Of a stretch of 64,000 bases of DNA, positions 1,609-44,289 are shown piece by piece. This DNA is from Candidatus Omnitrophota bacterium. GTDB lineage: Bacteria > Omnitrophota > Gorgyraeia > 2-01-FULL-45-10. The position numbers and the translations under genes are program-made. The number at the start of each line of letters is the position of its first letter. The first letter of the stretch is position 1. The notes beneath the pieces were generated by a model. It was given only the letters and a program-made list of their open reading frames with translations, searched no databases and was not told the DNA's origin. The stretch lies in contig JAQUQN010000001.1 of NCBI GenBank assembly GCA_028716065.1, forward strand, positions 13,266-77,265. Direction: 5' to 3'.

Positions 1609-3366
1609 ATGACCGAGTTGAACCAGCTCCTATTAACGGTGCAGAAACCGGCCAGATATATCGGAGGTGAATGGAACGCGGTCCGGAAGGAATGGAACGC
1701 CGGTACCGTAAAGGTCCTGCTCGCCTTCCCGGATGTATATGAAGTGGGCATGAGCTATCTGGGGCAGAAGATACTCTACGGCATATTGAATGAAAGAGAA
1801 GACTGCCTGTGCGAACGCGTCTTTTCGCCATGGCCGGATTTTGAAGATGTTTTAAGGAAGAATGATATTTCCCTCTTCAGCCTCGAATCACGTAAACCGA
1901 TAAAAGAATTCGACATCATCGGTTTCAGCCTCGCCTACGAACTTAACTACACAAATGCCCTGAATATATTAGACCTCGGCGGCATTCCGAAAAAGTCTTC
2001 CGAAAGGACCAATGGCGACCCGCTTATCATCGCAGGAGGGCCTTCCTGTTACAATCCTGAACCCATGGCCGAATTCATCGACGCATTCGTAATAGGCGAC
2101 GGGGAAGAAGCGATCGGAGATGTCATTGATACGTATAAGAGAACGCAGTACGCTGTACGCAGTACGCGGTACGAGCTACTAAAAGAACTGGCGAAGATAG
2201 AAGGGGTATATGTGCCGTCGTTATACGAAGTCAATTATAATGATGATGGTACAATAAAAAAATTTTCTCCTTTGTCGGGCCAGGCCCCCGAGAGAATCAA
2301 GAAAAGAATACTTAAAGATATAGAGAACTCTTACTATCCCACCAAGCAACTTGTACCTTATATACAGATCGTCCACGACAGGATAGCTCTGGAGATAATG
2401 CGTGGATGCGTTCACAACTGCAGGTTCTGCCAGGCGGGAACTACTTACAGGCCATGCCGGCAAAGGTCTGAGGAGAGAGTGATGAGACTTGCCGAGGAGT
2501 CTTATGGCACGACCGGTTATGAAGAGCTATCGCTATTATCTTTATCGAGCGGTGACCATCCGAAGATAAAGGAGATAATAAAAGGGCTCAACCGAATATT
2601 CGAAGGCAAGGCCGTTTCTATCTCCGTGCCTTCCTTGAGGATAGAGGATATCCTGGGAGATCTCCCGGAACTTATATCCCGGGTGAAGAAGACGGGCCTG
2701 ACATTCGCTCCCGAGGCGGGAAGCGAATGCCTGAGAAAGAGGGTGAATAAGAACATCGACATAGAGAAGCTTTATGAGGCCGTTTTGAAATCTTTCCATT
2801 CCGGATGGCGCAGGATAAAATTATATTTCATGATAGGGTTACCCGCGGAGAATGATGAGGACCTTACAGCTATCGGGGAGCTCGTAAAAAAGATTTCTGA
2901 CCTGAAGAAAAATATAGACGGACGGCCCGGCCACGTCACGGCCAGCATAAACGCTTTCGTTCCCAAGCCACATACCTCTTTTCAGTGGGAGGCCATGGCG
3001 AGCATGGAAGAACTCGGCCGTAAAAAAGGGATTTTGCTGGGCAGTGTGAGATCCCGGAACATAGAACTTGATTTTCACCCGTTTGAGAGAGGGTTTGTAG
3101 AGGCAATATTTTCACGCGGCGACAGAAGGTTATCGGAAGCGATCTATAACGCCTGGCGTTCCGGATGCCGTTTTGACGGATGGAGGGATTTTTTTAATTT
3201 CGGGGCCTGGATGAATTCTTTTAAGAATAGCGGAATAGACCCCTTTTTCTATGCATATCGCAAAAGGTCCGGAGACGAGATACTCCCCTGGGATTTTGTC
3301 GATATAGGTATAGGGAAGGACTATTTTCTGAAGGAGGCGAAGACCGCCGGAAATACGGCAGTTTGA
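1609..3366 (+). CDS. B12-binding-domain radical SAM protein (TIGR03960-like)
   Basis: CxxxCxxC motif (RGCVHNCRFCQAG) and an N-terminal B12-binding-like region. This family normally sits next to DUF2344 and rng. Confidence 0.75.
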   Translation: MTELNQLLLTVQKPARYIGGEWNAVRKEWNAGTVKVLLAFPDVYEVGMSYLGQKILYGILNEREDCLCERVFSPWPDFEDVLRKNDISLFSLESRKPIKEFDIIGFSLAYELNYTNALNILDLGGIPKKSSERTNGDPLIIAGGPSCYNPEPMAEFIDAFVIGDGEEAIGDVIDTYKRTQYAVRSTRYELLKELAKIEGVYVPSLYEVNYNDDGTIKKFSPLSGQAPERIKKRILKDIENSYYPTKQLVPYIQIVHDRIALEIMRGCVHNCRFCQAGTTYRPCRQRSEERVMRLAEESYGTTGYEELSLLSLSSGDHPKIKEIIKGLNRIFEGKAVSISVPSLRIEDILGDLPELISRVKKTGLTFAPEAGSECLRKRVNKNIDIEKLYEAVLKSFHSGWRRIKLYFMIGLPAENDEDLTAIGELVKKISDLKKNIDGRPGHVTASINAFVPKPHTSFQWEAMASMEELGRKKGILLGSVRSRNIELDFHPFERGFVEAIFSRGDRRLSEAIYNAWRSGCRFDGWRDFFNFGAWMNSFKNSGIDPFFYAYRKRSGDEILPWDFVDIGIGKDYFLKEAKTAGNTAV

Positions 3367-3391
3367 CAACTCGTATTTTATAGAGTATACT
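3363..3391 (+). promoter_or_regulatory. Sigma70-type promoter TTGACA-N17-TATACT for the GGDEF-pilT operon; overlaps the stop of the upstream gene
   Basis: TTGACA at 3363-3368, a 17-nt spacer, TATACT at 3386-3391. A GGGAGG RBS and ATG 3427 follow. Confidence 0.45.
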
Positions 3392-11706: not shown

Positions 11707-12180
11707 ATGAAAATTTGTTTTAAATATTATCGTAATGCATTTACCCCGTTAGAGAAAACCACCGATTTTAATCAGTGGTTATATCCGGATAAAGCTAACC
11801 CCGTTAGAAAAGATTTTTCTAAGGCGGTAAAAGAACCGCTAAATTCTCTAACGGGGTTTACGTTAGTTGAAATAATGATCGTTGTTGCCATAATAGCGAT
11901 CATAATAGCGATAGCCCTTCCGAATTATCTCAAAACGAGCACAGTTTCCAAAAAGACCATCTGCATAAATAATCTGAAACAGATAGACGCTGCCATAGAC
12001 CAGTGGGCCATGGAGAACGATATTCCCAAGGGCGCTCAGGCAACGGAAGAAGTCTATGATTATGTAAACGGCTCCAGGATAACTTGTCCGTCAGGAGGTG
12101 TATATACGTTACATTCGGTGGGAAGCAAGCCGCAGGTCACATGCAGTTTGGAAAATGAGGGGCATAAACTTCCGGAATGA
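11707..12180 (+). CDS. Second pilin-like protein with an unusually long 52-aa leader
   Basis: The mature part, G|FTLVEIMIVVAIIAIIIAIALPNY..., is homologous to pilA. ATG 11707 is the only in-frame start before it. Palindromic-element half-sites are embedded in the leader-coding DNA. Confidence 0.65.
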   Translation: MKICFKYYRNAFTPLEKTTDFNQWLYPDKANPVRKDFSKAVKEPLNSLTGFTLVEIMIVVAIIAIIIAIALPNYLKTSTVSKKTICINNLKQIDAAIDQWAMENDIPKGAQATEEVYDYVNGSRITCPSGGVYTLHSVGSKPQVTCSLENEGHKLPE

Positions 12181-24070: not shown

Positions 24071-25324
24071 ATGAAGAGAGAAGATATTAAAAAATTATGC
24101 CGGAGGGCTAAGGCGGGATCCAGGAAGCTTGCCCTTCTTGACTCAGAGACGAAGAGCCGTATCCTGATAGCCATGTCCAAGGGACTGATAAGAGGGCTGC
24201 CGACGATACTCAAGGAGAACGAAAAGGATGTGGCCTCCGCCAGAAAAAGGTCTTTACCCGGCGCCCTGATAGACAGGTTGACGCTCAATCCATCCCGGAT
24301 AAGATCGATGGCCGATTCGTTGTTGAAGATAGCGGCTCTCAAAGACCCCGTGGGAGAGGTAACCGAGACCGTAAAAAGGCCCAACGGGCTTATTATCAAA
24401 AAGGTGAAAGTTCCCATAGGCGTGATACTCATCATTTATGAATCGAGGCCCAACGTGACCAGCGACTGCATAGGGCTGTGCCTGAAATCCGGGAACTCTG
24501 TCATCTTAAGAGGCGGCAGCGAAGCCATAAGGTCCAATATCGCCATATTCGATGCCCTGAACAGGGCGGCCCTCAGGCGCGGTCTTCCCGAGGATGCCAT
24601 GACGATGATCAAGGATACCGATAGAAAGCTGGTGAACGAGCTGTTAAAACAGGAGGGCTTAATAGACCTGGTCATGCCGCGCGGAGGAGAGTCGCTCATA
24701 CGCGAAGTTTCAGCAAATTCCCGCATACCAGTTATCAAGCATTATAAAGGGGTATGTCATACCTACATCGACAAGGACGCGGATCTAAAGATGGCCGAGG
24801 ATATCGCCTTCAACGCGAAGGTCCAGCGGCCCGGTGTCTGTAACGCCATGGAGACGATGCTGGTGCACAAGGATGCGTCAAGGGACTTCCTGCCGGTGAT
24901 GATAGAGCGGTTTAAACACGCCGGCGTAGAGATAAGAGGCTGTCCGAAGACCAGAAAGATAGTCAAAGGAATCCTAGCGGCCAGGGAGGATGACTGGTAC
25001 GCCGAATATCTTGATCTCATACTGTCCGTCAAGGTCGTCGAAGATATCGACGAGGCTATCGAACATATAATGCGTTACGGCTCGTATCATTCGGACACGA
25101 TCGTCACGGATAATGAGGCTGCTGCATCGAAATTCCTTAAAGAGGTAGACTCGGCTTGCGTATATGTCAATGCGTCCACGCGTTTTACGGACGGAGGTGA
25201 GTTTGGTAAAGGGGCCGAGATAGGAATATCGACCGATAAGATACACGCGCGCGGCCCGATGGGGTTAGAGGAGCTCACGTCGTATAAATATCTGGTTTAT
25301 GGGAACGGACAGATCAGGAAATGA
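24071..25324 (+). CDS. proA: Gamma-glutamyl phosphate reductase
   Basis: Aldehyde-dehydrogenase-family ProA signature. Position after proB. Confidence 0.9.
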   Translation: MKREDIKKLCRRAKAGSRKLALLDSETKSRILIAMSKGLIRGLPTILKENEKDVASARKRSLPGALIDRLTLNPSRIRSMADSLLKIAALKDPVGEVTETVKRPNGLIIKKVKVPIGVILIIYESRPNVTSDCIGLCLKSGNSVILRGGSEAIRSNIAIFDALNRAALRRGLPEDAMTMIKDTDRKLVNELLKQEGLIDLVMPRGGESLIREVSANSRIPVIKHYKGVCHTYIDKDADLKMAEDIAFNAKVQRPGVCNAMETMLVHKDASRDFLPVMIERFKHAGVEIRGCPKTRKIVKGILAAREDDWYAEYLDLILSVKVVEDIDEAIEHIMRYGSYHSDTIVTDNEAAASKFLKEVDSACVYVNASTRFTDGGEFGKGAEIGISTDKIHARGPMGLEELTSYKYLVYGNGQIRK

Positions 25325-25331
25325 GTTTACG

Positions 25332-25901
25332 ATGCGAATAGGAATATTGGGAGGCACGTTCAATCCGATACACATAGGGCACCTGATCCTTGCGGAAGAG
25401 GCCTGTTTCAAGCTTAAGCTCGACAAGGTGATATTCGTGCCGACATTCATTCCTCCACACAAAGAGATAGCGCCCAGCGTAAAGCCAAAGGACCGCCTTA
25501 AGATGGTAAAGTTGGCCATAGAAAAGAACCCTGCCTTTGAGGTATCCAGGTATGAGATAGACTCAAAGAAGAAATCGTATTCGATAGATACTTTAAAGGA
25601 GTTCAGGAAGAAATACGGAGAGGCAGCTCAACTATTCTTCATAACGGGGTCCGATTCGCTCAAGGACCTTTTTTCATGGAAAGACGTGAATGACATTTTC
25701 AAGATATCCAAGTTCATAGTGGCCAATAGGCCCGGCTACCCGGTCAGGGAAGTTCCGAAGGAAGTCGAGACGGTTGTGATAACGCCCATTGAGGTCTCTT
25801 CGGAAGATATCAGAAAGAGGCTCAAAGAGGCAAGGTCGATAAGGTATCTCGTTCCCGAAAAAGTTAGGAATTATATCATCAACCGCAATCTATATAAGTA
25901 A
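25332..25901 (+). CDS. nadD: Nicotinate-nucleotide adenylyltransferase
   Basis: MRIGILGGTFNPIHIGHL (HxGH motif). ATG 25332 follows the proA stop. The ORF track's 25299 start overlaps proA. Confidence 0.85.
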   Translation: MRIGILGGTFNPIHIGHLILAEEACFKLKLDKVIFVPTFIPPHKEIAPSVKPKDRLKMVKLAIEKNPAFEVSRYEIDSKKKSYSIDTLKEFRKKYGEAAQLFFITGSDSLKDLFSWKDVNDIFKISKFIVANRPGYPVREVPKEVETVVITPIEVSSEDIRKRLKEARSIRYLVPEKVRNYIINRNLYK

Positions 25902-25902
25902 A

Positions 25903-25931
25903 CCCCGTTAGAAAAATCTTTTCTAACGGGG
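25903..25931. repeat. 29-nt perfect palindromic element CCCCGTTAGAAAAATCTTTTCTAACGGGG (copy 1)
   Basis: 13-bp arms around a 3-nt centre, starting 2 nt after the nadD stop. An identical copy lies at 35616-35644, and split half-sites lie in the pilA2 leader (11747-11857). Confidence 0.65.
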
Positions 25932-25951
25932 TAAAAGAGATCCTTATTCCC

Positions 25952-34435: not shown

Positions 34436-35275
34436 ATGCTGAAAGAGAGCGAACTGAAAACCCTGTTTTTGAAGCACGGTTTCAAACCCCTTAAAAGGTT
34501 CGGCGAAAATTATCTTATCGACGGGAACATAAAGGACAAGATAATAAAAGAAGCCGGGGTCAAAAAAGGTGAGACGGTCCTTGAGATAGGGCCGGGCATG
34601 GGCGAGCTGACCATGGACCTGGCGGAGAGCGCGGCAGATGTATACGCCGTCGAGAAGGACCCGAAGGCCTTTCTGATACTGAAGGGACTGACAGGCGTCG
34701 TCCGCCCGAATTTAAAGATCTTTCAGCAGGATATCCTGGATTTCAGTTTCAAGTCCATCTCTTCGCCCAAAAATGTCAGGGTGATAGGGAACCTGCCGTA
34801 CTATATCACGACTCCTATAGTAGAATATCTCATCCGGAATAAAAGATATATAAAGGACATACTCATCACCGTGCAGAAAGAAGTGGCCGACCGCCTGCTC
34901 GCCTCTCCCGGAAATAAAGATTACGCCTCCATAAGTTGTTTTGTTCAATATCATACCAGGCCAGCCTATATCTACACGATAAAACGCACCTCTTTTTACC
35001 CGGAACCGGGCGTGGATTCCAGCCTCATACGGCTCGATGTGCTCGAGAAGCCATCTGTGAGCGTGGATGATGAAGAGTTATTCTTCAAGATAATCAGGGG
35101 CGCGTTTAACCAGAGAAGAAAGACGGTCATCAATTCGCTTTCCCGCCGCGATGTTCTCGACATGCCTAAAGAAGAACTGGCTAAGATCCTCCGCGAGGCT
35201 GAAATAGACCCTACCCAGCGCCCCGAACATTTGAGCCTCGCAGATTTCGCCAGGATCGCGAACGCCGTGGCGTAA
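34436..35275 (+). CDS. rsmA: 16S rRNA (adenine1518/1519-N6)-dimethyltransferase
   Basis: KsgA/Dim1 motifs (VLEIGPGMGELT, VIGNLPYYITTPI). Position after pdxA as in many genomes. Confidence 0.9.
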   Translation: MLKESELKTLFLKHGFKPLKRFGENYLIDGNIKDKIIKEAGVKKGETVLEIGPGMGELTMDLAESAADVYAVEKDPKAFLILKGLTGVVRPNLKIFQQDILDFSFKSISSPKNVRVIGNLPYYITTPIVEYLIRNKRYIKDILITVQKEVADRLLASPGNKDYASISCFVQYHTRPAYIYTIKRTSFYPEPGVDSSLIRLDVLEKPSVSVDDEELFFKIIRGAFNQRRKTVINSLSRRDVLDMPKEELAKILREAEIDPTQRPEHLSLADFARIANAVA

Positions 35276-35388
35276 TATTATTTTTGTATCTCCTCGCTTA
35301 GCGGCTTCTCGATAAGGTTCCCCCTCTTAAAACCGAGTGCATCGCCCGAACATTATATGGCCACGAGGCCAGGACCCTTCGCCTAATT

Positions 35389-35417
35389 TTGCTCTCATGA
35401 ATTTTGGCTACTATAAT
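35389..35417 (+). promoter_or_regulatory. Candidate promoter TTGCTC-N17-TATAAT inside the long rsmA-gatC spacer
   Basis: Located at 35389-35394 and 35412-35417. It would give a roughly 550-nt untranslated leader before gatC. Confidence 0.35.
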
Positions 35418-35615
35418 AGGTAGTTATAGAGTTATTTTGGCCTTACGCTAACGAAGTCGCTAATTTGCTTTAGGAGGTAATTAAGTACTTAGCAAAATTT
35501 TACGGCTCAGGGCCCATGGCCTCATGGCCACCTAAAGTATGCTCTGCTACATCGGCCTTAAAGGGGACCCCTTTTAGCGAAGAAGCCACCCTCGACCCGG
35601 ACATAAAATATCTTA

Positions 35616-35644
35616 CCCCGTTAGAAAAATCTTTTCTAACGGGG
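35616..35644. repeat. 29-nt palindromic element, copy 2 (identical to 25903-25931)
   Basis: Exact match CCCCGTTAGAAAAATCTTTTCTAACGGGG. Confidence 0.65.
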
Positions 35645-35664
35645 TGAACTTGGGGAACTGGGGT

Positions 35665-35897
35665 GGGAAATTTACGGGTGACACGACTAAGACTTTTGCG
35701 CGCACAAGCGAAGCGCGGGATGGGGGTGTCCGCCGTTTAGGATTACCGAAAAAACGCGTATACGTTTTATATAGTCGGACGTTCCGTTAATCCTGGCGGA
35801 CATACAGACACCAAGTGTCTATTGCCGGTCTATTGTGAACCCCGCGCGGAGTGCGGAGCACAAAAGTCTTAGTAGTGGCAGGACCCGTAAATTTCCC
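35665..35897. other. 233-nt element closed by 14-bp perfect plus 11-bp terminal inverted repeats: candidate structured ncRNA or MITE-like mobile remnant
   Basis: GGGAAATTTACGGG (35665-78) pairs with CCCGTAAATTTCCC (35884-97). TAAGACTTTTG (35688-98) pairs with CAAAAGTCTTA (35861-71). Several internal hairpins (for example GTCCGCC..AGGATTA / TAATCCT..GGCGGAC). Confidence 0.4.
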
Positions 35898-35974
35898 ATA
35901 TAAGACTTGCGGAGAATTTGACTTTGGCGGGGAAGTGTGGTAAGTTATACAAAAAGGCGGCTAAAGTGACGAAA

Positions 35975-36268
35975 GTGATTGATAAAGCTACGGTTAAGCA
36001 TGTGGCGCTGCTTTCAAGGCTGGCACTCGATGAAAGAGAAGAGACCACCTATTCGACGCAATTAGCATCTATTTTATCATATATAAATAAATTGAATGAG
36101 TTGGATACTAAAGATACGCCTCCGACCAGCCATGTCCTGTCCAATTTAAGGAACGTGGATAGGGCAGATGTTTTAAAGGAGTCGCTCAAGGCCGAAGAGG
36201 CGCTCGCCAACGCGCCTGAAAAGGAAGGGGATTTCTTCAGGATCCCCAAGGTCATCGAAGGAAAGTAA
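35975..36268 (+). CDS. gatC: Asp/Glu-tRNA(Asn/Gln) amidotransferase subunit C
   Basis: VIDKATVKHVALLSRLALDEREE from a GTG start. It directly precedes gatA. The track's 35918 start adds a non-homologous N-terminus. Confidence 0.75.
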   Translation: MIDKATVKHVALLSRLALDEREETTYSTQLASILSYINKLNELDTKDTPPTSHVLSNLRNVDRADVLKESLKAEEALANAPEKEGDFFRIPKVIEGK

Positions 36269-36275
36269 TTTATAG

Positions 36276-37727
36276 ATGGAGAATCTCTACGATCTGCCGG
36301 CTAATCGGCTGGCAGAAAAGCTGAAGTCCAAAACCCTCAAGCCCTCCCATGTTGTCGAAAAGATCATCCAGAGAATAAAAGAATTAAACGGCAGGATAAA
36401 TTCATTCGTATTCATAGATGAGCCGCAGGCTTTAAAAGCCGCCAAGGCGGCCGACGGTTCGGACCTGAAAGGAGACCTCTCGGGGATCCCGATAGCCGTC
36501 AAGGATAATATTTGCGTGAAAGGTCAGGATACTACCTGTTCATCCAGGATATTAAAGGGCTTCAGGCCGCCTTACGACGCCACGGTCATAAAAAAGATAC
36601 GCGAGAATGGCCTCATCCTCGTAGGCAAGACGAACATGGACGAATTCGCTTTCGGCTCTTCATGCGAGACGTCCTGTTATGGCCCGACGAAGAATCCGTG
36701 GGACCCGGACAGGATCCCGGGCGGTTCCAGCGGCGGTTCGGCAGCGGCGGTCGCGAGCGGCCAGATAGTGATGGCTATCGGTTCCGATACGGGCGGTTCC
36801 ATAAGGCAGCCGGCGGCAATGTGCGGAGTGGTCGGCATGAAGCCGACATACGGGCTCGTCTCCCGGTACGGACTCATCGCCTTCGCTTCGAGCCTCGACC
36901 AGATAGGGCCGATCACCAAAGATGTCACGGACGCGGCGGCGCTTCTCGGGGTAATAGCGGGACACGATGAGATGGATTCGACATCCGCGGATATCGAAAC
37001 ACCCGATTATCGCAAGTCCCTGGTGAATGATGTAAAGGGATTGAAGATAGGGATACCGAAAGAATATTTCATAGAAGGGATAGAGCCGGACGTGCTGAAG
37101 GCCGTTAAGGAAGCGATAGAGCTTCTTAAAAAGATGGGTGCTCAGATAAAAGAGATAAGCCTTCCGCATACGGAATACGCGGTCAGCACCTATTACATCA
37201 TCGCCCCGGCCGAGGCAAGTTCGAATCTCGCCAGATTCGACGGCGTGCAGTATGGTTTCCGCGCTCCGCATCCGAAAGATATAATAGATATGTACACGAA
37301 GACGCGTTCGCAGGGCTTCGGCGAGGAGGCGAAGAGAAGGATATTATTGGGAACCTACGTCCTCTCTAGCGGCTATTATGAAGCCTACTACCTCAAGGCG
37401 CTCAAGGTCAGGACGAAGATAAGGGTTGATTTCACGAGGGCATTCAAAGAGGTCGATTGCATCGTGACGCCGACCTCACCCACGACGGCGTTCAAAATAG
37501 GCGAAAGAATAGATGACCCGTTAAGCATGTACCTGTCGGACATCTTTACGATCCCCGCAAATCTGGCGGGGATACCGGCGATCTCCATACCATGCGGTTT
37601 TGACGGCAAGGGCCTGCCGATAGGCCTTCAGATAATCGCAGACGCGTTCAAGGAAGAGAATATATTCACCGCCGCCTATGCGTACGAACAGAATACGGAT
37701 TGGCATTCAAAGCGGCCGGGGATATGA
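36276..37727 (+). CDS. gatA: Glutamyl-tRNA(Gln) amidotransferase subunit A
   Basis: Amidase signature ([12 protein letters not shown]), 483 aa. Confidence 0.9.
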
Positions 37728-37865: not shown

Positions 37866-39296
37866 ATGAAATACGAACCTGTGATAGGACTGGAAGTTCA
37901 TCTGCAGCTCAAGACTAAGACGAAGGCCTTCTGCGGTTGTTCGACTCTTTTCGGGCAGAGGCCGAATTCTCAAAGTTGCCCCGTCTGCCTGGGCCTTCCG
38001 GGATCGCTTCCCAAACTGAACCATGAGGCCTTCGGCCATTCGATAAAAGTAGCCCTTGCCCTCCATTGCTCCGTACAGAAAGAGATAAAATTCGACAGAA
38101 AGAATTACTATTATCCGGACCTGCCGAAGAACTTTCAGATATCCCAATATGACAAGCCGGTAGCGCATGACGGTTTCGTGGATATATCATCATGCGGGAA
38201 GATCAAAAAAATACGGATAAAGAGGGTCCATCTCGAAGAGGATGCTGGAAAACTCATACACCAGACCGGAGGGCCTTACAGTCTCTTCGACTGCAACAGG
38301 GCTGGCATGCCGCTTCTGGAGATAGTGACGGAACCGGATATAAATTCTCCGGAAGAGGCCTATGATTATCTGACAGGTCTCAAGTCTATCCTGAAGTATC
38401 TTGAGGTATCGGACTGCGACATGGAAAAGGGGAGCCTGCGTTGCGACGCCAATATCTCGGTCAGGCCCGCGGGAAGCGATAAACTGGGTTCGAAGGTAGA
38501 ACTTAAGAACATGAACTCTTTCAAGGCCGTGAGATTGGCGCTGGAGCATGAGGTCTCCAGGCAGATGGAGGCCGTATCGGCCGGCGAAAAGTTACAACAG
38601 GAGACGCGCCTCTGGGACGCCGGCAAGGCCGTGACGTTATTGATGCGTACCAAGGAAGAGGCGCACGACTACAGGTATTTTCCGGAGCCGGACCTCGTTC
38701 CTTTTGTCCCCGACCCTTCTTACGTGGAAGATATAAGGAAGACTATTCCAGAGATGCCTGATGCGAAGGCAAAGCGTTTCAAGGAGCGGTTCAATCTTTC
38801 GGATTATGACATAGCCGTATTGGTGAGCGATAAGGCTGCGGCCGATTATTTCGAGAAGTGCCTGGAGTCATATGATAATCCGAAGACGGTAGCGAACTGG
38901 ATAATGGGCGATATCACGGCTCAATCGAATCTCAAAAATACCGGTATCCGGGAACTGGGGATCTCTCCCCAGGGCCTGGCGGAACTCCTGAAGATGATAG
39001 ACGGGCAGCTGATAAGCGGGAAGATGGCAAAGGAGGTCTTGCTGGAGGCGATCGAAAAGAGATGTGAGCCTGCCCAGATCGTAAGATCGAAAGGACTTGA
39101 GCAGTTAAGCGATAAAGGTGAATTAGAAAAAATAGTAAAGGTCATACTGGGCAGGAACGAAAAATCCGTGCAGGACTATAAAGGCGGCAAGAAAAACGCC
39201 CTGACGTTTATCATCGGACAGGTGATGCGCGAGACGAAGGGCAAGGCGAATCCCGCGGTAATAAACGAGATCTTAAAAAAGAGCCTGGGAGAATAA
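37866..39296 (+). CDS. gatB: Asp/Glu-tRNA amidotransferase subunit B
   Basis: MKYEPVIGLEVHLQL N-terminus, a GatB/YqeY C-terminal domain, 476 aa. Confidence 0.9.
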   Translation: MKYEPVIGLEVHLQLKTKTKAFCGCSTLFGQRPNSQSCPVCLGLPGSLPKLNHEAFGHSIKVALALHCSVQKEIKFDRKNYYYPDLPKNFQISQYDKPVAHDGFVDISSCGKIKKIRIKRVHLEEDAGKLIHQTGGPYSLFDCNRAGMPLLEIVTEPDINSPEEAYDYLTGLKSILKYLEVSDCDMEKGSLRCDANISVRPAGSDKLGSKVELKNMNSFKAVRLALEHEVSRQMEAVSAGEKLQQETRLWDAGKAVTLLMRTKEEAHDYRYFPEPDLVPFVPDPSYVEDIRKTIPEMPDAKAKRFKERFNLSDYDIAVLVSDKAAADYFEKCLESYDNPKTVANWIMGDITAQSNLKNTGIRELGISPQGLAELLKMIDGQLISGKMAKEVLLEAIEKRCEPAQIVRSKGLEQLSDKGELEKIVKVILGRNEKSVQDYKGGKKNALTFIIGQVMRETKGKANPAVINEILKKSLGE

Positions 39297-43728: not shown

Positions 43729-43861
43729 GCGTAAAGTGTAAAGCGAAAAGCGCAAAATTTCCCGCTGTGGCGGGATCCCGCAAAAGGCGGGAAAAACTTA
43801 GAGTTTAAAGCGTTTTAAGTTTTACGTTTTAATTTTACGTTTTGCGCTTTGCGTTTTACAC
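43728..43861. promoter_or_regulatory. About 22-bp imperfect inverted repeats (GTGTAAAGCGAAAAGCGCAAAA / TTTTGCGCTTTGCGTTTTACAC) flanking a set of mutually exclusive CCCGC/GCGGG hairpins
   Basis: 43758-43796 reads tttCCCGCtgtgGCGGGatCCCGCaaaagGCGGGaaaa. It lies between two HTH_17 genes, making it a candidate operator or centromere-like site. Confidence 0.4.
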
Positions 43862-43887
43862 TAAAGGTAGTTATAGGGGTATTAATT

Positions 43888-44289
43888 ATGCCTGAGAAAC
43901 TGTTCAATATAAAAGAGGTCGCTCAATATCTGAAACTTCCGGAAGAAGAGGTGAAGCGCCTTGTCGATATCGGAGAGATACCGGCGTACAGGATAGGCGG
44001 GACGTTCCTGCGTTTCAGGAAAGAACAACTTGACGCGATAAAGAGAGAGATCTCTACCATAGAGGAGGCGGAACCCGAACACGCCAAACCCGTCCTCGAT
44101 TCGAAGGGGCATCCGACCCATCCTTATACCGACCTGGAAAGAGAGATAAAGCGTAAAGAGCCCATCACGAGGCAATACGATTATACTTTGTTGGAGAGGT
44201 TGCGGGATTTTTTCTATTTTTATGATTTTTATCTCGTCTGTTTTCTTATAATTGGCGCGTTATTTTACGTGATTTTTTTCAAGAGTTGA
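43888..44289 (+). CDS. HTH_17 (excisionase-family) DNA-binding protein with a C-terminal TM anchor
   Basis: LFNIKEVAQYLKLPEEEVKRLVDIGEIPAYRIGGTFLRFRKEQL, then a hydrophobic C-terminal helix (FFYFYDFYLVCFLIIGALFYVIFF). Confidence 0.6.
   Translation: MPEKLFNIKEVAQYLKLPEEEVKRLVDIGEIPAYRIGGTFLRFRKEQLDAIKREISTIEEAEPEHAKPVLDSKGHPTHPYTDLEREIKRKEPITRQYDYTLLERLRDFFYFYDFYLVCFLIIGALFYVIFFKS

Follow-up and report, generated by a model that had tools for sequence, protein, structure and literature searches.

A putative new family of strand-specific structured repeats dispersed among intergenic spacers of Omnitrophota

Introduction

The described systems closest to the element studied here are a structured RNA and several classes of dispersed intergenic repeat. 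The element, which we call the rod, is a 235-nt hairpin-forming unit in the spacer between ksgA and gatC of a Candidatus Omnitrophota bacterium (assembly GCA_028716065.1, contig JAQUQN010000001.1, positions 13,266 to 77,265 of the forward strand; the whole stretch of 64,000 nt that was analysed is called the window). 6S RNA (SsrS) consists of a closing stem, a large and roughly balanced central bubble and an indispensable terminal stem; it binds sigma-70 RNA polymerase, templates pRNA and is a stable housekeeping gene in one or two copies. It shares with the rod a length of ~150-250 nt, a long closing helix with small loops, a large internal loop, an apical arm and, in some members, a small hairpin in the 3' strand of the loop. 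The rod, however, has no Rfam 6S match, a very asymmetric loop and an arm that is dispensable in some members; it is found at multiple loci, turns over rapidly and comes without its own promoter and terminator.

Among dispersed repeats, the ERIC, Correia, BOX and bcr1-type families (PMC3184786; PMC2267715) resemble the rod in being non-coding, 100-250 nt long and imperfectly palindromic over their full length, in lying between housekeeping genes, in being present or absent at the same locus and in forming clusters or mosaics; they too have no coding capacity and are likely co-transcribed with neighbouring operons. Unlike them, the rod lacks conserved ends and shows no target duplication, TA or otherwise. 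It conserves instead an asymmetric central junction and one internal loop, its stems covary across the phylum, and it is strand-specific, of low density and without sequence similarity to these families. The traits of miniature inverted-repeat transposable elements (MITEs) include terminal inverted repeats, target duplications, an intergenic location and a long RNA stem-loop (PMC3184786). REPIN/RAYT systems (PMC3116915, PMC3337134) are, like the rod, hairpin-forming and non-autonomous, without the usual terminal repeats or target duplications; they show compensatory evolution of the arms and long persistence in lineages, and the putative mobilising enzyme is not adjacent. REPINs are, however, made of two inverted copies of a short REP, measure ~70-120 nt, are symmetric and occur in tens to hundreds of copies, whereas the rod is ~230 nt long with a non-palindromic core.

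In kind, the rod is a dispersed hairpin-forming intergenic repeat of a sort already known (PMC3184786, PMC2267715, PMC3116915); the rod family itself is not in Rfam. From comparison of sequences and predicted folds, we give a probability of roughly one in two to the reading that it represents a new family of strand-specific, structure-conserving, non-autonomous dispersed repeat, whose members probably act as RNA in operon tails.

Results and Discussion

The rod and its family

The ksgA-gatC spacer (positions 35276-35965, between the ksgA stop at 35275 and the gatC start at 35966) is non-coding. The initial annotation of this DNA, made from the letters alone, had called the spacer unusually long, and it does rank with the longest gaps of the window, where coding sequence makes up ~92% and the median gap is ~4 nt; several further gaps of 350-860 nt are present. 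The annotation had also delimited a 233-nt inverted-repeat unit closed by repeats of 14 bp and 11 bp. The unit is real and folds as a long irregular hairpin, but the two figures were too low: the arms at 35664-35679 and 35883-35898 are 16 nt long and 100% complementary, and a second pair of arms, at 35679-35701 and 35858-35880, is 23 nt long and 87% complementary. From its base the predicted rod consists of helix P1, internal loop 1 (IL1), helix P2, internal loop 2 (IL2), helix P3, an asymmetric junction and the apical arm P4, with the following parts.

35664-35898, + strand: the rod, a 235-nt structured family member (covariance model R1, 144.5 bits, E = 6e-31; fold; family alignment)
35664-35679, + strand: 5' arm of P1, UGGGAAAUUUACGGGU, pairing with 35883-35898 (16 nt, 100% complementary)
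35713-35726, + strand: 5' strand of P3, GCGCGGG, followed by the conserved junction strand AUGGGGG; pairs with 35841-35847
35727-35802, + strand: apical arm P4, UGUCCGCCG/UGGCGGACA plus GGAUUA/UAAUCC, with a variable tip (pair counts of helix 8)
35803-35840, + strand: long junction strand UACAGACACCAAGUGUCUAUUGCCGGUCUAUUGUGAAC, with ACAGAYAC, CUAUUGUnnAC and a small hairpin at 35806-35820
35877-35883, + strand: 3' strand of IL1, GGCAGGA, facing UGA(C) at 35679-35682; the most widely conserved internal loop of the family

The predicted fold energy was -105.7 kcal/mol for the + strand (z = -6.5) and -108.9 kcal/mol for the - strand (z = -8.8), and none of 200 shuffled sequences folded as well as the rod.

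Metagenome contigs were scanned with a family pattern, CTATTGTNNACCCC followed after a gap of 25-55 nt by CAGGACCC. The scan returned 39 loci (metagenome loci are denoted by L and a number), of which ~33 were true members, either full or truncated. The family holds more than 30 sequences of 145-256 nt from Omnitrophota metagenomes and metagenome-assembled genomes; the GAPDH encoded beside one metagenome rod is 95% identical to NCBI Omnitrophica proteins. Common to all members is the asymmetric core GGGUGAC ... GGGAUGGGGGUG-hairpin-CAUACAGAUAC ... CUAUUGUAAACCCC ... GGCAGGACCC. None of the 39 loci carries ksgA or gatC; the ksgA-gatC site itself holds a rod copy in three lineages with KsgA proteins 65-67% identical. 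Members scored 67-153 bits with model R1 and the distant ksgA-gatC copies 44.7 bits (L081) and 34.5 bits (L090). The core of L090 is re-arranged, yet P1, IL1, AUGGGGG and UGUGAA-CCCC are retained. On viral contigs the strict pattern gave one chance match inside a phage open reading frame (ORF; L092) and a looser pattern 68 loci, taken as chance given its low specificity. Neither did we find a rod in 697 kb around gatA genes of other phyla (80 loci, in which the best GatA matches were only 60% identical), nor a blastn match of the spacer to plasmid and phage records. The family appears to be previously undescribed and, as far as sampled, confined to Omnitrophota.

The initial annotation had proposed a covariation analysis in relatives, and in that analysis the stems covary. 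RNAalifold applied to 17 trimmed members gave 38 pairs, 21 of them with compensatory changes. When 31 members were aligned with R1, 94% of the cells were standard pairs and 23 of the 38 pairs had changed on both sides (162 cells). No shuffle out of 500 matched these pairing and covariation values, and sliding the partner column by 1-3 positions left 33-47% paired. In a control that needs no alignment, the P2 5' arm paired with its own 3' arm at an average of -44.9 kcal/mol, against -22.8 kcal/mol with the arms of other members.

Rfam 15 returned no match above its gathering thresholds in the whole window and nothing relevant at E <= 10 in positions 35200-36050; 14 further rod loci searched at E <= 5 likewise matched no family. 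In the scanned loci Rfam matched unrelated genes only: L182 has an RNase P RNA and L173 a tRNA. The earlier statement that no RNase P, tmRNA or SRP signatures were seen was borne out, with 6S RNA undetected as well, and a clean Rfam match that would reclassify the rod as a known RNA was not obtained.

Conservation is unevenly spread along the predicted fold. P1 measures ~13-16 bp in the family and usually reads AAAUUUUUnGGG/CCCnAAAAAUUU; its outer pairs covary (UA 11, AU 5, GC 5, CG 1; and CG 15, UA 6). In IL1, no member departs from CAGGACCC, not even the divergent L081 and L090, and the A.G mismatch becomes G.A in L081 and L191. A K-turn was considered for IL1 and rejected: there is a G at position 2b, and the L081 and L191 variants are incompatible with such a motif. 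The sequence of P2 is variable and punctuated by tandem G.A and other purine-purine mismatches. P3 has the form nnnGGG/CCCnnn, with covarying pairs (AU 21, GC 6, UA 2; and UA 27, CG 4), and in the stretch 35713-35726 GGGATGGGG is nearly invariant. P4 begins with UGYCCGCCG/CGGCGGRCA, continues with GGAUUR/YAAUCC and ends in a variable tip; its helix 8 is 97% paired, and five of its eight pairs show changes in both partners. L081 has only a very short arm, and both copies of L171 and the rod of L178 have none. The two junction strands are very unequal, 7 nt on the 5' side versus ~38 nt on the 3' side, and in the long strand CTATTGT and ACCCC are invariant and CATACAGATAC nearly so.

The form of IL2 varies by subfamily. 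In L179, L188, L182 and the + copy of L171 it sets 5'-UAUGG-3' opposite 5'-CCUAAA-3', a near match to the 11-nt GAAA-tetraloop receptor (UAUGG/CCUAAG). Were the likeness genuine, it would point to a tertiary motif specific to RNA; no tetraloop was identified as its partner.

Some members are incomplete or mixed. The rods of L186 and L187 are truncated, with only the 3' half left from about ACAGAUAC or CUAUUGU onward, and in L187 another inverted-repeat element (GGGGACGGGTTCATTTTT ... AAAAATGAACCCGTCCCC) takes the place of the 5' half. In L162, L172, L184, L190 and L192 the two halves come from different subfamilies with breakpoints in the conserved core; these rods are either true recombinants between paralogues or metagenome assembly chimeras formed at conserved blocks.

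Genomic context and turnover of rod copies

The neighbours of the rods are unrelated housekeeping genes: smc (twice), an HhH-GPD glycosylase (twice), GAPDH, carbamoyl-phosphate synthase, prfB-secA, ETF, rlmN, xseA, ymdB, DUF362 and others. The rod is co-oriented with the downstream gene at 19 of 24 loci (p = 0.003), or at 16 of 21 when the same locus is counted once (p = 0.013), and it ends 37-185 nt before the downstream start codon. At six loci a TTGAC-N17-TAnnnT site stands between the rod and the next gene; because of this promoter-like site, the rod would not lie in the 5' untranslated region of that gene. Terminator-like hairpins follow the rod in L179, L182 and L177, as read by eye from the sequence and not by a terminator scan. 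A cis-regulatory leader or riboswitch was rejected on the grounds of the unrelated downstream genes and the intervening promoter. No transposase, integrase or reverse transcriptase adjoins any of ~25 copies. A retron non-coding RNA was also rejected: no copy has a reverse transcriptase nearby, and retron a1/a2 repeats are far shorter than the closing helix.

Two neighbouring genes deserve mention in their own right. L182 encodes on its - strand, at 950-1443, a bacterial class A RNase P RNA (119 bits), convergent with the rod and ~80 nt from it. The smc gene downstream of the rod in L166 (1540-4665) holds an intein splicing domain in the N-terminal ATPase region (Pfam Intein_splicing, E = 1e-25).

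A copy search had been proposed in the initial annotation as a test for a MITE. By blastn, nhmmer and an unfiltered covariance-model scan the rod occurs once in the window; in metagenomes, some rods are nearly identical to one another. L165 and L167/L168 are 96-97% identical exactly from TGGG to CCCG and have unrelated flanks, L163, L173 and L175 have the rod in common and different sequence downstream, and the rods of L184, L190 and L192 are 97-99% identical in different flanks. Such copies, 96-99% identical and differently flanked, occur within one sample. A 1.6-kb contig (L171) carries two diverged rods 96 nt apart in opposite orientations. Replacement was seen between L200 and L170, where the GAPDH is 97% identical, the order GAPDH-gap-glycosylase is the same and the flanking non-coding sequence is conserved; the ~330-nt segment that holds the rod in L170 corresponds in L200 to a different hairpin module plus a canonical terminator. 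In a non-exhaustive inspection by eye, the edges of the rods in the window, L165, L173 and L190 showed no direct repeats, nor did the L170/L200 boundaries; no clean empty site was found. At ksgA-gatC, the rod is absent from L083, L086 and L088.

These data bear on both halves of the original proposal, a MITE or a structured non-coding RNA. What stands is that the terminal repeats close a conserved structured element which is dispersed in several contexts; it is neither a classical MITE nor an RNA known to Rfam. In the first half, the rod would be a deletion derivative of a DNA transposon mobilised in trans via its terminal inverted repeats. Such repeats are present, the size is in the MITE range, the element is intergenic and may fold as a long RNA stem-loop (traits listed in PMC3184786), there is no internal transposase gene (the only internal ORF, of 48 aa, has no Pfam match), and presence or absence differs at the same locus between genomes. 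The termini, however, are the most variable part of the element (AAATTTTTT, TATCAATTGC and GATCCGTA variants) and covary like a helix, the asymmetric centre is invariant, and the inverted repeat is merely the base of a full-length hairpin. With no target-site duplication at the junctions inspected, no related insertion sequence or transposase nearby and a single copy in the window, we regard a classical MITE as very unlikely.

The second half would make the rod a trans-acting regulatory RNA, for example a 6S-like decoy of RNA polymerase or a sponge for a GGA-binding protein. Its shape (a closing rod, a large internal loop and an apical arm within 145-256 nt) would suit such a role, as would the RNA-like pattern of conserved loops with covarying stems and the retention of the ksgA-gatC copy in three lineages. 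A direct count on the sequence also gave 8 GGA motifs in the window copy, against ~3.4 expected from its base composition. 6S RNA in particular is disfavoured because of the asymmetric bubble (7 nt versus ~38 nt), the variants without an arm (L171 and L178, and the very short arm of L081), the near-identical copies at several loci in three different flanks, and the replacement in L200. The lack of a match to 6S or any other Rfam family, of a conserved promoter or terminator of the rod's own and of a stable one- or two-copy gene (the rod being absent from L083, L086 and L088 and replaced where GAPDH is 97% identical) argues against a trans-acting RNA more generally, as does a variant with non-pairing arms at three loci. 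We therefore hold such an RNA family to be unlikely.

Strand specificity and the form under selection

From several observations we conclude that selection on the rod is specific to one strand, the + strand. In 21 of 26 members it is this strand that folds better, with a mean margin of 5.8 kcal/mol, and model R1 scores ~24 bits on the reverse strand compared with ~150 on +. Read on the + strand, the mismatches are purine-purine in 169 cases and pyrimidine-pyrimidine in 15. RNAalifold pairs AUGGG of the junction with YCUAU through G.U pairs, which is possible on the + strand only; for this helix, and for one pair beside P4 that also uses G.U, the other strand would have C.A mismatches. Our leaning, a slight one, is that the form under selection is RNA rather than single-stranded DNA.

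We propose that + strand transcripts of the rod would either form the tail of the upstream operon's RNA or start at a promoter in a neighbouring module. The transcript would fold into an irregular rod of ~55 bp with purine-rich internal loops and the junction on top, and the invariant single-stranded blocks AUGGGGG, ACAGAUAC, CUAUUGUAAAC and GGCAGGA could bind a trans-acting protein. The effect might be exerted at the RNA 3' end, as a barrier to exonucleases or as insulation or termination between transcription units. The family itself would spread and be reshuffled by recombination or by a transposition mechanism.

A number of observations weigh against this reading. Five of the 24 copies oppose their neighbours, and no conserved promoter was found directly upstream of the rod. 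A 31-nt hairpin between ksgA and the rod, described below, could stop + strand transcription before the rod is reached. One rod was counted in these 64 kb and none in 89 kb of contigs from other Omnitrophota. The hybrid P2 arms of the L184/L190/L192 variant fail to pair, and still this variant occurs at three loci, which means either that the pairing is dispensable for spread or that these copies are decaying. Wobble pairs in the helices are very rare and unbiased, with 9 isolated G.U against 7 A.C in ~1,000-1,500 aligned positions; so few wobbles are unusual for a long-evolved RNA and would better suit a hairpin at the DNA level or one copied recently. Being inherited, the purine-rich loops do not count as independent events. 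Finally, the + strand of the rod is also the G-rich, putatively leading strand, and a single-stranded DNA transposon using the lagging-strand template would give the same orientation bias.

The last points lead to the strongest competitor, which we consider possible but doubtful: a mobile element moving as single-stranded DNA, like REPIN/RAYT or non-autonomous IS200/IS605 derivatives. An asymmetric hairpin would then be recognised on one strand by a distant single-copy HUH/Y1-type enzyme, and the RNA structure would be incidental. Such an element would account for the strong strand specificity on the G-rich strand, the nearly wobble-free helices, the near-identical copies in different flanks, the replacement in a close relative, and the lack of conserved terminal inverted repeats, target duplication and local transposase. 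Persistence of the rod across lineages with KsgA 65-67% identical is also as described for REPIN populations (PMC3116915; bioRxiv 10.1101/2021.07.10.451892). On the other hand, the rod is not built from two copies of a single unit; its 230 nt and complex, non-palindromic junction set it well apart from REPs and REPINs, which are far smaller and more symmetric. No GTAG or CGTC tag, as found at the REP end (PMC3733652), is visible at the rod ends, the density of one copy in 64 kb is low, and no RAYT or TnpA gene turned up, though none was systematically sought. The use of G.U pairs in the conserved predicted helix and the UAUGG/CCUAAA loop of one subfamily, with its likeness to an RNA tetraloop receptor, also speak against it.

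Other modules of the spacer

Upstream of the rod, the spacer contains further structured units, as follows.

35350-35588, + strand: type-D module, a quasi-palindromic structured repeat of ~190-240 nt (inverted repeat; nhmmer homologues)
35389-35417, + strand: promoter-like TTGCTC (35389-35394), 17-nt spacer, TATAAT (35412-35417), inside the type-D module
35557-35577, no strand assigned: small G4/C4 hairpin CTTAAAGGGG/CCCCTTTTAG (inverted repeat)
35615-35645, no strand assigned: 31-nt perfect palindrome ACCCCGTTAGAAAA-ATC-TTTTCTAACGGGGT, recurrent and terminator-like in appearance

The type-D module is predicted to form an outer helix (35350-35371 with 35517-35538) and an inner A/U helix (~35383-35394 with ~35491-35505). 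The arms of the outer helix are the GGCC-rich palindromes of the initial annotation; they pair with each other and covary in relatives, with GGCCACGAGGCC/GGCCTCATGGCC replaced by GGCTACCCGGCC/GGCCGGGTAGCC. Homologues of the module, with the conserved blocks CTTCGCCTAATTTTGCTCTCAAG and CAAAATTTTACGGCTCA, were detected by nhmmer in L193, L164, L176 and L166, and the 21-kb L200 has two of them. Coordinates of copies are as follows.

L193, 1680-1856: type-D copy
L164, 4217-4401: type-D copy
L176, 11762-11915: type-D copy
L200, 7383-7533 and 11456-11622: type-D copies

The window copy folds only modestly better than shuffled sequences (z = -2.1). The candidate promoter noted previously lies within this module, and hence within a set of recurrent modules that had been overlooked. 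Its sequence is present and the -35-like TTGnTC is conserved across the type-D homologues, but the consensus scan does not call it and an acceptable -10 was found in only three of six homologous modules. The AAAGGGGACCCCTTT hairpin of the same annotation was recovered at 35557-35577 by the inverted-repeat search.

The 31-nt palindrome, previously listed as copy 2 of a palindromic element, is identical to 25902-25932, which directly follows the stop of the ORF at 25299-25901; variants lie at 11741-11857, and the half-site ACCCCGTTAGA occurs at least five times in the window. From its sequence, the family looks like terminator or REP-like hairpins without a U-tract. The consensus scan flags the palindrome as terminator-like on the - strand only. 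A - strand unit ending at this hairpin was rejected, there being no conserved - strand promoter and no equivalent hairpin in other members, and microRNA-like Rfam matches on the palindrome were attributed to chance. Logan contig L084, from the same organism, ends inside the palindrome, which suggests that this sequence breaks assemblies.

A third family of structured modules, type A/B (~195 nt), was found in L081, L090, L188, L197, L162, L177, L178 and L200, in all but L200 just upstream of the rod.

L081, 3896-4088: type-A/B copy
L090, 2905-3100: type-A/B copy
L188, 3318-3514: type-A/B copy
L197, 1501-1735: type-A/B copy
L162, 330-506: type-A/B copy
L177, 5-143: type-A/B copy
L200, 7049-7285: type-A/B copy

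Their closing stems covary (GGCGGUUACUUUCGGG/CCCGAAAGUUCCGCC versus GGAACUUCCGGUGUC/GACACCGGAAGUUCC), and the copies of L090 and L188 are 87% identical over 175 nt despite different rods and contexts. The companion module families are multicopy within one contig. Because the type-D module, the palindrome and the rod each recur, the 700-bp spacer is best described, at the sequence level, as a mosaic of these three structured repeats, an organisation comparable to that of BIME or BOX clusters. It is conceivable, at long odds, that the rod, type-A/B and type-D modules are not passive repeats and form a new class of self-propagating structured elements. The invariant junction would then be the active site or the recognition platform of a mobilisation or processing machinery, which might be a new RNA- or single-stranded-DNA-guided enzyme, a structure-specific enzyme or even a catalytic RNA.

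The ksgA-gatC locus and the window

The genes and the promoter that flank the spacer are the following.

34436-35275, + strand: ksgA/rsmA, 16S rRNA dimethyltransferase, upstream flank (Pfam RrnaAD, E = 1.3e-55)
35918-35946, + strand: gatCAB promoter TTGACT, 17-nt spacer, TAAGTT; downstream boundary of the island, recurring in relatives
35966-36268, + strand: gatC, downstream flank (Pfam GatC; synteny)
36276-37727 and 37866-39296, + strand: gatA and gatB, after gatC (Pfam Amidase for gatA; synteny)

The KsgA encoded in the window matches an NCBI Candidatus Omnitrophota protein with 100% identity. Its gene closes the conserved block mfd-ppiC-surA-pdxA-ksgA, whose synteny is retained in relatives, and the full order mfd-ppiC-surA-pdxA-ksgA-gatCAB is maintained in relatives with KsgA 63-68% identical. 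The ksgA-gatC gap measures 510 nt in L081 and 625 nt in L090, each with a recognisably homologous hairpin, and 50 nt in L083, which has no island. TTGAC-N17-TAAgTT/TAAtTT/TAAcTT also directly precedes gatC in L081, L090 and the island-free L083. As all four readable gaps end with the same promoter-like site, the island sits inserted between the ksgA stop and the gatCAB promoter.

In L088, the gap without a rod is occupied by two other long inverted repeats (2940-3180 and 3250-3385) together with a DUF2934 gene, and in L086 by a gene with an ORF6N domain. Since these two loci carry other inserts there, the site is an insertion hot spot. Two ORFs of 43 and 48 aa inside the spacer have no Pfam match. 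A small protein was rejected as their product: around the first ATG only a DNA motif is conserved and the frame is not, and the 43-aa frame is not retained at the same place in L081 and L088.

In the window as a whole, the + strand carries ~56 of 61 ORFs, and GC skew stays positive from end to end (0.08-0.16). With a G+C content of 0.385, clearly below the ~0.48 found elsewhere, the block at 48-56 kb may be a foreign or specialised gene cluster. At 43735-43862, in a non-coding stretch just upstream of a small ORF starting near 43889, a further hairpin encloses an inner palindrome; its arms are 23 nt long, 91% complementary and separated by 82 nt.

Significance

Omnitrophota are a large, uncultured and little-studied phylum, and full-text searches on Omnitrophota or Omnitrophica with non-coding, structured or 6S RNA turned up no described non-coding RNA or repeat families. 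What would be new in the rod family is the combination of a conserved asymmetric core, stems that covary across the phylum, low density and cassette-like replacement. The rod breaks the rules of MITEs, which have conserved ends, and those of REPINs, which are symmetric short palindromes; its conservation resembles that of a functional RNA and its distribution that of a mobile element. If the core does bind a protein, the partner could be a new mobilising or RNA-processing enzyme. Structured modules of this kind would account for the long "non-coding islands" in the otherwise compact genomes of Omnitrophota, and they may cause assembly breaks and chimeras in metagenome-assembled genomes.

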